Assembly: GCA_965601935.1 (NCBI GenBank)
Contig: CBFCWZ010000001.1
Location: forward strand, 1 to 35,502
DNA from: an uncultured Ilumatobacteraceae bacterium
GTDB taxonomy: Bacteria > Actinomycetota > Acidimicrobiia > Acidimicrobiales > Ilumatobacteraceae
Length of the DNA stretch: 35,502 nt
Direction: 5' to 3'
The notes below the pieces were generated by a model. The model was given only the letters and a program-made list of their open reading frames with translations. It was not told the DNA's origin and made no database searches. This document shows positions 24,352-30,123 of the stretch, in pieces. Numbering within the stretch: the first letter of the stretch is position 1; every line of letters begins with the position of its first letter. A program made the position numbers and the translations under genes.

Positions 24352-27300
24352 ATGACCGAGGTGAGGATCCACGACGCCGCACGGGGCACCCGCCGCATCG
24401 AGCGCGCCGACGGATCGATACTCCTGCTCGACCGCGATGACCGCCGACGGACCTTCCGTCTCTGCGACGATGCCGGTCCGCTGCTCTCACTGCGAGCCGA
24501 CGGCGAGAGCGTCGTCGGCGACGACCCGACCGGCACGACGACCGTCGGCCGCCAGGGACACTCGACCCGCGTCGAACGACGAACCGCCGACGGACGCAGC
24601 ACCACTGCCCGGATGGTCCTCCGCATCGACCGCGACGAGGCGGGCCGCCCGACCCGTGTCACCGTTCCCGGCTCGGCGAGCGATCTGCATGTCCGCCCGA
24701 CCGGGGCCGGTCGCTGGCGGGTCGAGACGGACGATGGAGGGCTGGTGGTGGAGTTGGCGTCGAGCGGCGAACACGGGCGCGCCGTGCGATTCGCCAATGG
24801 TTGGGGCTGGGACGAGCGGGCGAGCGCCGGCAAGGTCGTCGCCCTCCCGACCGACGGTGGACGCGGTGTCACGACCGAGCTCGACCGGGGCGGCCGAGTC
24901 GTGGGCCGCGTGGGTGTCGACGGCATCTCCCACCGCTACGAGCGCGACGCTCGGGGTCGCCTCGTCGCCTGGAGCGGCCCGGCGGAGGTGCGATGGGAGT
25001 TCCGCCCGTCAGAAGAGGACCGACCCGATGCGATCATCGCGGTGTCCACCGACGGACGCAGGCGGCGTGTGCGGACCGACACCGTCGGACGCACGACGGC
25101 GCTGACCGGGGGTGGGCGCCCGACGGTGCGCCACGAGCACGACGCGGCCGGCCGCCGCACGGTTCGACGGGCGGAGACACGGGCCACCAGGTACCGCTAC
25201 GACTCGCTCGACCAACTCGTCGCCGTCGACCACCCCGACGGACGCCGCACCGAGATGGGTTGGGACGCGCTCGGCCGGCGCGTGTGGGTCTCCACCGATG
25301 GCGAACGTCTGGACGAGCACCGGGACGTGGACGGACGCCTCTGGGCGGTCACCGACGCCGACGGCCGTGCGATCCACACGTTCCTGTGGTGGGAGGGGCG
25401 CGTCATCGCCCGTCTCGACGGCCCCGTCGGCACCCCCGTCGCCGAGGCCTACCTCACCGACCCGCTCGGAACGCTCGTCGCCGTCGCCACGCCCGGAGCC
25501 GACGGCAGCTGGCGAACGGACGACACGATCGGCAACCCGTACGGGCGGATCACCGCCCCCTACCGGCCGACCGTGTTCGGGCACATGGCCGACCGGTCGA
25601 GTGGGCTGATCTGCGTCGGCTGCCGACTTCTCGACCCCGAGACGGCGTCCTTCCTCACGCCCGATCCCTGGCACGGCGGGCCCGACGACCCGCGTGTCCT
25701 CGCCGGCGCGACGCCCCACGAACTGGCCCGAGGTCGCGAGTCGCCAGGAACGTCCACCCATCCCGTGGCGATCAGCCGGTTCGACCCCCTCTCCCGCCCC
25801 GACCTCGACGGGCATTTCGCGTGGGGCAACTTCTTCCTCAGCCTGATCCTCGCCCCGACCTGGGGATTCCCGCTCACCTCGCTGTCGGTGTTCTTCTTCC
25901 TCCCCCTCGACATCTACCTCGAGCTGGCGGGATTGATCGCCTTCATCTTCACCGACCATCCATGGCCCCACCACTCGTTCGTCAACATGAAGGGCCTGGC
26001 GGGGAGCACGACACTCGGCACGGCCGCTCTCGCCCTCAACGGCTTCCTGCCGCGGGCGATCGCCGGCGGTGGTGTCGGCAACGACCGCGCGGTCACGATC
26101 GGTCATGTCGCCTGGGAGAACCGCCACTACTTCACGATGCTCGACCGGGCTTGTGTGCTGATGCTCCAGGACGTCGCCGGTGCACCTGCGGCCGACGGCA
26201 CGCCCGATGGCGGGGCGACCGCCTTCTCGCGTACCGCACGAGGATCGATCGTCGTCGTCGAGAGCGTCGACGACGACAACCGCCGCTGGATCCATGGCAG
26301 CTGGTGGACGCGCGGCGGGGGTAACCGCGTGGCCGTGCGGGGCACCGACCAGGCCTTCGAGGACCACGCCACAGACGGGGCCGCACACACGAGCGGTTCG
26401 ATCCTCCTCGCCCAGCCGATGCGCGAGGTGATGGCGGCCCCCCGCGAGCCCGATGACGACGGACGGGTCACGGTGACCGAATACCCGGTTCACGCAACGG
26501 TGTCGAGCCGGGGCGAGATCATGCGCGACCAGTGGTTCGCGATCGCCGTCTCCAACGACACCGGGCTCGCCGGGGGGGATGCGATCCGGATCCGGGTGGG
26601 CGACGATGACATCGAACCCGCCTTTGCCGGAATCCAGGGAGTGCTGACCGGCGACACGCCGATCCTGCTCCTCGACAGCACTCTCCCGAGCCGGTTCCAG
26701 GTCGACTCCTTCCGCACGTCCATCGAGGTCACCGAGCTCTCGGTGGCGTCCGGGTCGGCTGCCGGTTCGAGCGCCGGGTGGACGGCGCCGCCGGTGACCG
26801 CCGAAACCCCGGCCAATCGCAGCCTGACCACCGCCGCACCCGGCCACCGGGTCCGCGTCGGGGACGTCGTGGCCATCACGCCGACTCCCACCACACCATC
26901 GGCCGAGCAGCCGGTGGTGTACGGCGAGATCCGGACCGTGCGCGCCGACCTCGACCTGACCGTCGCTCCCCCCGCCGGGATCGACGCAGCCAACGCGTTC
27001 CTGCTGGCACCGGACGGGACCGTGGGCCGGGGGACCGTCCCTGATCCGGCGGGAGATCCGGCAACGGTGACCGTCACCGGCGACCACGACTTCGAGATCG
27101 ACGACATGATCGCCGTCCACCCGGCGGCAGGTGACCCTCACCATGCCGTCGCCACGAACGTGACGGCCGCCGCCGACGGCAGCCCGGCGACGCTGACGCT
27201 CGACCCGCCGATCCCCGGGGCGGTCGTTTCAGTTGCCGGCGCGGCGGTTCGCCTGGCGCGGCTCCACGCTGCCGACCGGGACCGTGACACGGGCGAGGTC

Positions 27301-30123: not shown

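Follow-up and report, generated by a model that had tools for sequence, protein, structure and literature searches.

The stretch of DNA considered here, 35,502 nucleotides (nt) from an uncultured Ilumatobacteraceae bacterium (GenBank assembly GCA_965601935.1, contig CBFCWZ010000001.1; hereafter the window), carries an operon for a contractile injection system (CIS), the last gene of which encodes a protein of 1923 amino acids (aa). What might a contractile machine do with a single chain that joins a YD/Rhs sheet, a marginally hydrophobic block, a zincin-type domain and a long array of immunoglobulin (Ig)-like domains? The reading that we favour, and to which we would give a probability of roughly 0.4, is that this protein is a machine-dedicated, self-processing, Rhs-derived effector, or 'warhead', of a divergent CIS. 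Support for such a role comes, at the level of sequence, from modules of effector type, namely the Rhs core, an HExxHxxQ signature and, in some relatives, C-terminal enzyme domains. In the initial annotation of this DNA the protein had been proposed as either an effector or a membrane anchor of the CIS. Its linkage to the CIS and its effector-type modules have held up under further analysis; it did not prove to be a variable cargo, and the case for an anchor turned out to be weak.

The open reading frame (ORF) at positions 24352-30123 (+ strand, as are all window features below unless stated otherwise; stop codon included) is a genuine gene, despite the fact that in this window of about 70% G+C every frame yields spurious ORFs. 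Its stop-free translation comprises 1923 aa. Although the frame is open upstream as far as a GTG at 24016, the start at 24352 is correct, because 39 full-length homologues (29-59% identity) align with the protein from M1 at 100% coverage. The ATG lies 1 nt past the TGA of the preceding gene (21057-24350), which codes for an acidic protein of 1097 aa, referred to below as the acidic partner. No further gene follows on the + strand: the next one (30278-31408), with a fructosamine-kinase-like product, is convergent and precedes LacI-type regulators. No terminator-like site was found on the + strand downstream of the 1923-aa gene, and in other genomes synteny stops at the stop codon of its homologue. 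The ORF, the homologue alignment and synteny thus bear out the original assignment of the gene as the last of the operon, starting at 24352, 1 nt after that for the acidic protein.

The order of domains was derived from Pfam, profile searches and two AlphaFold2 models. RHS repeats were the sole matches when the whole protein and three sub-segments of it were scanned with Pfam, NCBIfam and PHROG. When PDB sequences were searched with the protein, with the profile of its family and with that of the HExxH domain, only Rhs and teneurin proteins came up, apart from chance matches to CARD domains. At the N-terminus a YD/Rhs beta-hairpin sheet occupies aa 13-430 (24388-25641). What had been described as a short YD/Rhs segment is therefore real, being supported by Pfam, the family profile, AlphaFold2 and Foldseek, but it is not short. 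The match to RHS_repeat (PF05593; E 4.5e-8) is above the Pfam cut-off, TIGR01643 is matched at E 3.4e-9, and the family profile finds solved Rhs proteins with a best E of 3e-40. AlphaFold2 models the sheet with about 36 strands and a predicted local distance difference test score (pLDDT) of >90, and Foldseek places the N-terminal model beside the shells of teneurin, Rhs and TcC proteins at E ~1e-16. This sheet is a partial shell that corresponds to about the C-terminal third of an Rhs cocoon. The NCBIfam model of the whole core, RHS_core (NF041261), is matched at positions 545-699 of its 1261 only, with 43 bits against a cut-off of 2000. A closed, full cocoon, with a full-length RHS core of ~1000 aa or more and an N-terminal plug, is thus not what the 1923-aa protein forms. 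Its YD repeats start at aa 13, and Pfam detects in it no N-terminal trafficking domain of the PAAR, prePAAR with transmembrane domain (prePAAR-TMD), VgrG-binding or LXG type.

The sheet runs into a diverged Rhs-associated core with a motif of aspartyl-autoprotease type (aa 405-490; 25564-25821), recognised from a family hidden Markov model (HMM) and from invariant columns. The motif reads FGH..R425..D428P..F434..TPD438PWHGG..DD445-446PR..FD478PLS..D484..G487H, and its columns are invariant or nearly so. In the family HMM (aa 330-500), aa 333-440 align with canonical Rhs cores (...PFG...GQYxDxETGL...RxYDPxxGRFLxPDP), and in the family of the 1923-aa protein this alignment extends to ...RxLDPExxxFLTPDPW. 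A second invariant Asp-Pro motif (FD478PLS/G; D478-P479) stands 40 residues after the first, whereas the canonical spacing is 22, that of the catalytic aspartates D1369/D1391 of Tse15 (named in the title of PDB 8uxt). TIGR03696 and PF03527 gave no match to the protein in the NCBIfam and Pfam scans, and a single-sequence PDB search with aa 380-503 returned chance matches to papillomavirus L1 only. From these diverged Asp-Pro motifs we infer that the protein may cleave itself.

Directly after the core comes a highly conserved, marginally hydrophobic block (aa 490-535; 25819-25956; ...ILxPTWGFPLTSxSxFFFxPLNLYxExxGLI...), in which T503, W504, G505, T509, S512 and F516 are invariant. AlphaFold2 predicts helices at aa 490-499 and 507-533, with pLDDT <50 over most of aa 485-598. 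The two or three hydrophobic helices noted at first in this part of the protein thus exist as predicted helices, but they are hydrophobic only marginally. Kyte-Doolittle peaks of the block are 1.55-1.95, and the maximum of the family-average hydrophobicity is 1.64. By a crude Hessa sum that takes no account of position, the protein scores +3.2 to +4.2 kcal/mol, with +3.9 to +4.2 for the helices of aa 490-535. The best segments of the individual relatives range from +1.4 to +4.9, and a control transmembrane (TM) helix, taken from the protein encoded at 3628-5529, has -1.9 kcal/mol. Conserved D/N520 and E524 lie within the hydrophobic segments of the family. No N-terminal hydrophobic segment of the signal-peptide kind was seen in the translation or its hydropathy profile. 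The following region, aa 536-697 (25957-26442), is conserved too, including LNGFLPR and DRAVTIGxVxW; it has no sequence match in Pfam, PHROG or PDB, and AlphaFold2 is confident within it only from about aa 600. A local phmmer search with aa 478-700 recovered all 39 known relatives (E 1e-30 to 1e-106).

The remainder of the chain consists of beta modules on either side of a helical domain. Tandem beta modules, about four in number and repeating every ~85-90 aa, make up aa 698-1063 (26443-27540), as had been annotated: self-alignment of the family profile with hhalign detects the repeat (probability 95%, E 1.6e-8), and AlphaFold2 predicts an all-beta structure with pLDDT mostly >80. A helical zincin-type domain, delimited by AlphaFold2 helices and invariant columns, spans aa 1229-1411 (28036-28584). 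On its first helix is placed HELAHTVQ (aa 1238-1245; 28063-28086), an HExxHxxQ metal-binding or catalytic signature. The motif noted at first is thus confirmed, and H1238, E1239, H1242 and Q1245 are invariant in 40/40 sequences. The exact HExxHxxQ motif is present in all 103 of the 103 family proteins of at least 1500 aa. Further invariant residues of the domain include E1404 and Q1405. D1267, 25 residues past H1242 on the next helix and near-invariant, and the invariant E1404 are candidates for an acidic third zinc ligand. Hydrophobic helices do flank the motif, as was noted initially, but they are short (13-25 residues) and lie inside the compact domain, and are therefore more likely to belong to a protein core than to span a membrane. 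A string of about five beta-sandwich domains of Ig-like type completes the protein (aa 1415-1923; 28594-30120), modelled by AlphaFold2 with pLDDT mostly >90; the single C-terminal Ig-like domain of the initial annotation is the last of them (aa 1838-1923; 29863-30120). Some relatives lack it, and in others enzyme domains come after it. Foldseek matches of the C-terminal model are dominated by generic Ig arrays (titin, cadherin and S-layer arrays, E 1e-9 to 1e-6). Taken together, about nine modules of beta-sandwich type account for roughly half of the protein.

The distribution of relatives bears on whether this gene belongs to the machine. When the profile of the HExxH domain was compared with 1.84 billion representative proteins, the 116 found at E <=1e-3 (clusters at 50% identity) were of this family only, and all the long members among them carry the motif at a comparable position. 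Five members, examined by Pfam scan or BLAST, are colinear with the 1923-aa protein and have N-terminal RHS repeats; relatives in Frankia and Phytohabitans, more distant but colinear, are likewise linked to a CIS cluster. In databases the relatives appear as 'hypothetical', 'YD repeat-containing', 'LysM domain-containing' or 'phospholipase D-like domain-containing' proteins. Their hosts span at least four phyla and include Actinomycetota (Nitriliruptorales, Ilumatobacteraceae, Actinophytocola, Occultella, Mycolicibacterium senegalense, M. agri, Agromyces, Frankia, Phytohabitans), Acidobacteriota (Vicinamibacterales, Thermoanaerobaculia, Bryobacteraceae), Pseudomonadota (Devosia, Sphingomonas, Accumulibacter) and Desulfuromonadales. 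A scan of one genome per species gave 25 loci, in 24 of which the homologue stands directly after the 1097-aa acidic partner, and wherever there is enough upstream DNA the same baseplate-distal genes precede it. That the protein belongs to a CIS, as first proposed, therefore stands; homologues unlinked to CIS loci, which would have spoken against it, come down to one in 25. This exception, in Microbacterium sp. F51-2R (NZ_CP197470.1; L015 9749-14596), is a 1615-aa copy that starts at the equivalent of aa 338 and lacks the YD sheet. It is flanked by gatB and a dinB-type polymerase gene, the 10 kb upstream of it are free of cluster genes, and it may be either a relic or a version independent of the machine. 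Another seeming N-terminal truncation, P0031, was rejected as a split gene call inside a cluster.

Divergence of the protein keeps pace with that of its neighbours. In one locus (L005) the neighbouring proteins are 65, 76, 54 and 61% identical to those of the window and the 1923-aa homologue 58%; in another (L014) the values are 36, 35, 28 and 31% against 33%. A rate about equal to that of the structural genes indicates a core gene rather than a variable cargo, and the early suggestion of a cargo of the extracellular CIS (eCIS) type does not hold in the usual sense of a variable distal gene, the gene being a fixed, single-copy core gene. Retention of the gene in related clusters across at least four phyla points in the same direction, to a built-in warhead or tether rather than to swappable cargo. 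What does vary is the extreme C-terminus, which bears an extra enzyme head in a minority of relatives. In 52 of the 86 tails that could be scored it is the same Ig-like domain as in the window protein. Ten representative clusters, one of them distant, bear a C-terminal domain of phospholipase D type (PF13091, E 2e-12 to 7e-14); phospholipase D domains are a classical effector activity of type VI secretion systems (T6SS). Two relatives, P0001 and P0139, carry a tyrosinase head in their C-terminal 270-320 aa (PF00264, E 5e-31 in P0001), and one, from Occultella, has a C-terminal addition with a metzincin-type HEVGHVLGLAH motif. A tyrosinase head is not usual in proteins that resemble toxins or fibres; it hints that oxidative cross-linking or melanisation takes place at the target surface. 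In a JGI metagenome contig (Ga0467076_0000019), five convergent genes lie directly downstream of a homologue that bears phospholipase D (L002 17924-27333, - strand); four of the five match RHS or TEN_YD-shell models (1439, 977, 242 and 80 aa), so that the CIS cluster there has a conventional Rhs toxin island as its neighbour.

How would a dedicated effector of this kind work? The protein, which has no N-terminal hydrophobic segment, would be made in the cytoplasm, and judging from the gene layout its translation is probably coupled to that of the acidic partner. The partial YD shell and the Rhs-associated core may serve as a mounting or latch module that holds the conserved hydrophobic block (aa 490-535), by analogy with the Rhs and TcC shells, which hold what follows their core. 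The Asp-Pro motifs at D438 and D478 would then cut the chain near aa 480. Lumen loading in the style of AlgoCIS is unlikely because a disordered N-terminal domain is absent; the protein would rather travel on the exterior of the tube, attached to the VgrG-PAAR spike or to the baseplate, and be released upon contraction of the sheath. The presence of a separate VgrG-like spike and PAAR protein in the same operon counts in favour of this proposal. Once freed, the hydrophobic block could engage the target membrane, the HExxHxxQ zincin-type domain might process the protein or itself be the damaging activity, and the Ig-like stalk would present the C-terminus, to which a phospholipase D, tyrosinase or metzincin domain has been added in some lineages. 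The window copy ends in a plain Ig-like domain, and therefore any activity of it must sit in the conserved body. The pattern of conservation is of interest here. It is highest in the Rhs-core stretch (74% at aa 426-450), followed by 69% in the hydrophobic block (aa 501-525) and 68% in the zincin domain (aa 1376-1400), and is only 25-35% in the beta and Ig modules; such peaks fit an active protein better than a passive fibre.

Several observations weigh against an effector. The YD part, with its ~36 strands and 43 bits against the 2000 of RHS_core, is too small to encapsulate anything large, and no spike-binding domain (PAAR, prePAAR or another recognisable VgrG-binding one) was found in the protein by Pfam. 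The autoprotease motif is diverged, with a spacing of 40 instead of 22 and, in one member, E in place of D438. Membership of PF13699, the family of known CIS cargo discussed below, is not established. The gene behaves like a structural one, being single-copy, fixed in position and diverging in parallel with the baseplate genes, and C-terminal variation is limited, given that 52/86 relatives share one tail and that the window copy has no enzyme or toxin head. Beside a phospholipase D variant no immunity gene was found among the called genes, and no co-directional downstream gene was called there. Fibres of eCIS, too, typically have long arrays of Ig-like domains with a distal tip that varies (PMC12923769). 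Finally, the proposal is built on sequence and predicted structure.

The last of these likenesses leads to the rival that survives best, which we consider possible, if rather doubtful: a structural, peripheral component, that is, a giant fibre or tether whose YD module docks onto the baseplate and whose beta and Ig-like domains form a long arm. Its distal C-terminus would attach to a surface, or modify it, by means of an Ig-like knob or, in certain lineages, of an enzyme. A core gene in a fixed place after the baseplate genes and evolving at the rate of structural genes is what one would expect of a fibre. The nine or so beta-sandwich-type modules that fill half of the protein, its fibre-like N-to-C polarity with an optional or variable tip, and the failure to recognise any other fibre-like gene in the conserved cluster agree with this. 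Indeed, Ig-like folds and enzyme domains are carried by eCIS fibres (PMC12923769). However, neither a fibre-type shaft nor an eCIS baseplate-anchoring domain was detected by Pfam or PHROG, and the matches of the N-terminal model to viral structures (Foldseek against BFVD) were weak, with no convincing similarity to phage fibres. The strongest conservation lies in the protease-type motifs and the hydrophobic block and not at the ends, and an Rhs core that cuts the arm off its own dock makes little sense. We know of no fibres with Rhs or zincin modules. To our knowledge, Rhs cores occur only in toxin-encapsulating or toxin-derived proteins (Rhs, TcC, teneurin), which points to a delivered protein. 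Neither the 1923-aa family nor close relatives of the sheath turned up when IMG/VR viral contigs were scanned, and on this ground an origin of the cluster from a phage was rejected as well.

Anchoring of the machine, which had been put forward initially as the alternative to an effector, seems quite improbable. In such a case aa 490-535, and possibly 1299-1323, would insert in the cytoplasmic membrane of the producer and tether the baseplate in the manner of Cis13, a fibre-like protein with a TM helix that provides a precedent (PMC8894136). Among the proteins of the conserved cluster the 1923-aa one does reach the highest Kyte-Doolittle value (1.95, near the 1.86 of the acidic partner and the 1.76 of the spike ORF). 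No other obvious membrane protein or T6SS-type membrane complex is encoded there, and the protein of 633 aa whose gene lies upstream of that for the sheath, a strongly hydrophobic one, is not conserved in related clusters. Nevertheless, the segments are marginally hydrophobic, with Hessa sums well short of the control TM helix, they enclose the conserved D/N520 and E524, and the N-terminus of the protein has no hydrophobic segment like that of a signal peptide. With just 13 residues, the helix at aa 1305-1317 belongs to a compact helical domain. Moreover, the hydrophobic segments are far more conserved than passive anchors usually are, and the same protein is found in monoderm, mycolate and diderm hosts. 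On sequence grounds, a classical transmembrane anchor is poorly supported.

That the protein is a stand-alone toxin or adhesin of the Rhs family which merely adjoins the CIS genes and leaves the cell by another route, as the unlinked Microbacterium sp. F51-2R copy without a YD part or cluster genes within 10 kb upstream might suggest, is very improbable indeed in view of the linkage of the other 24 loci from at least four phyla, the start codon 1 nt past the stop of the partner gene, and the absence of an N-terminal segment of signal-peptide type and, by Pfam, of any type VII secretion system (T7SS), LXG or PAAR domain.

The machine to which we would assign this dedicated effector looks like an undescribed CIS lineage. 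Its genes begin with the tail sheath (5698-7392; PF17482, phrog_279 E 1.5e-19). An ORF of ~127 aa directly after it (about 7412-7792, inside a longer frame at 7100-7792; MPTIFAANESSVLVDGEPLLGVQAIDY...) is of the size of a tube protein and was assigned by inspection only; it is probably the tube. There follow a baseplate-hub-like protein with weak matches only (9166-9837), a VgrG-type spike (9674-11488; PF04717), of which the best solved relatives are Afp8, the closest, and Pvc8, a separate PAAR gene (11488-11889; PF05488 E 2e-13), a gp25 protein (11886-12422; weak, under the Pfam cut-off) and a wedge of gp6/J type (12419-14131; phrog_6 E 2e-39, with matches to phage wedge proteins in PDB). Beyond the wedge, seven proteins without a family match, six or seven of them conserved, precede the 1923-aa gene. 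Neither an AAA+ ATPase of the Afp15 or ClpV type nor a T6SS membrane-complex family was found among the cluster ORFs scanned with Pfam, a scan that left out the tube-sized ORF and the ORF at 15452-15946. The acidic partner (21057-24350), directly 5' of the 1923-aa gene in 24/25 loci, has 208 D+E against 64 K+R, is rich in Leu, Asp, Glu and Ala, and is helical-looking by eye. Its matches are a sub-threshold one to Baculo_PEP_C (29 bits, cut-off 38) and a weak one to phrog_1204, 'tail protein'; it may be a chaperone, tether or ruler of the 1923-aa protein.

In 70 sheath-anchored metagenome loci the conserved cluster begins at the sheath, and the two genes that precede it in the window are not conserved. 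One of them, just upstream of the sheath gene (3628-5529; 633 aa), encodes a strong TM helix (Kyte-Doolittle 2.73; VVIGVVFVLTLFSVAVSAL) and two weaker hydrophobic segments; the other is an ORF at 2512-3324. Both are lineage-specific additions, because they are absent upstream of the sheath in related clusters, and for the same reason the 633-aa TM protein was rejected as a conserved anchor. Either might serve the machine as a local partner in the membrane. A group of metagenome loci (L078, L080, L083-L087) has sister sheaths with 41-43% identity; these clusters keep the hub, gp25 and the wedge, and queries with VgrG and PAAR give no match or only a weak one there.

No description of the 1923-aa family, or of a CIS cluster of this type, was found in the literature searched. 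The protein would mark an unstudied CIS lineage in cultured organisms (Mycolicibacterium senegalense ATCC 35796, Mycolicibacterium agri, Occultella glacieicola, Devosia insulae). Rare as it is, with 116 clusters at 50% identity in 1.84 billion proteins, the family is consistent. A bolder version of the proposal, which we regard as unlikely, is that the whole undescribed lineage (Actinomycetota, Acidobacteriota, Pseudomonadota, Desulfobacterota) is defined by a 'harpoon', in which a reduced Rhs shell serves as latch for a conserved, membrane-active segment, the latch opens on firing and a self-processing body of 150 kDa is planted in the target envelope; if true, Rhs chemistry would here be coupled to a phage-tail machine in a new way. 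Study of the protein would also show what a minimal YD shell and Rhs core can do with nothing to encapsulate. Should it turn out to be a fibre or tether, it would be the first Rhs-derived one, as far as we know.

It remains to set the protein against systems already known. Effectors of CIS are of two kinds: small proteins that have a disordered leader and are loaded into the lumen, and toxins mounted on the spike, full Rhs cocoons for example. Neither of these loading routes fits the 1923-aa protein, so that, as a payload, it would represent a third way of arming a contractile machine. Unlike lumen-loaded cargo of the Afp18, Pvc or Cgo type, its gene is conserved in related clusters, and only aa 1-12 are of low AlphaFold2 confidence at its N-terminus. 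The HExxHxxQ-E signature defines the PVC-metallopeptidase (DUF4157) of eCIS toxins, which stands N-terminal to variable toxin domains and sometimes after RHS repeats (PMC3482391). Proteins with DUF4157, Cgo1 and Cgo2, are proven AlgoCIS cargo and have a disordered N-terminal domain (PMC8894135). The 1923-aa protein shares with these 'eCIS_core' (PF13699) proteins the HExxHxxQ helix, a contractile injection locus and downstream C-terminal domains that vary. It differs in that its zincin-type domain is helical and has ~180 aa instead of ~80, with no disordered packaging domain at the N-terminus. PF13699 did not match the window protein and was matched weakly by 5 of 25 relatives, with a best E of 0.09 and 9.4 bits against a cut-off of 22. 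For hhalign a set of 32 genuine PF13699 proteins served as the comparison, the set having been gathered with a consensus sequence (120/120 listed matches carry PF13699); the probability was 48% over 18 columns, those of the motif helix only. Membership of PF13699/DUF4157 was rejected because hhalign aligned the motif helix alone, the Pfam scores being under threshold as well. The zincin-domain profile recovered no DUF4157 proteins from the 1.84 billion searched.

Fibres of eCIS, with their modular Ig-like or enzyme-bearing distal ends (PMC12923769), and Cis13, the hydrophobic helix of which ties the thylakoid-anchored CIS (tCIS) to the membrane (PMC8894136), resemble the 1923-aa protein in modular architecture and in the place of their genes after those for the baseplate. 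In the 1923-aa protein, however, neither a fibre shaft nor a domain for anchoring to the baseplate was detected, and its hydrophobic segments are internal and marginal. The TcB-TcC cocoon, matched by Foldseek at E 1e-10 to 1e-8, is likewise an Rhs shell, inside which an aspartyl autoprotease severs the chain ahead of the payload. In the 1923-aa protein, however, the shell is incomplete and part of a single chain without a TcB-like beta-propeller or a TcA partner, and enclosure of the 'payload' is precluded by a size ten times too large. The top Foldseek matches (E 9e-17) were to teneurins and bacterial teneurin-like proteins (9ifo), which are also very large and combine a YD shell with beta-sandwich modules. 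In contrast to them, our protein begins with its YD part, is CIS-linked and is devoid of EGF, NHL or Tox-GHH modules.

A further parallel is provided by the Rhs effectors of T6SS (RhsP 8h8a, RhsA 7q97, Tse5 8cp6, Tse15 8uxt, Tre23 7pq5). The YD sheet and the Rhs-associated core are common to both (family profile E 3e-40 to 1e-18, Foldseek ~1e-15), and both are encoded alongside a VgrG-type spike and PAAR. The 1923-aa protein departs from them in having a shell of ~430 aa only, no N-terminal plug, no PAAR- or VgrG-binding region and a displaced second DPxG motif. Its core is followed not by a small hypervariable toxin with an immunity gene but by a multidomain body of 1,440 aa, which all relatives share in conserved and colinear form. 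Nor was an immunity gene seen, and the gene is a fixed core gene of its cluster. In short, the protein is partly like an Rhs toxin, without the complete cocoon, the hypervariable toxin with its immunity gene or the N-terminal trafficking domain of one, and there is a moderate chance that, as an Rhs-derived and CIS-associated protein, it defines something more distinct than a variant of proteins already known.

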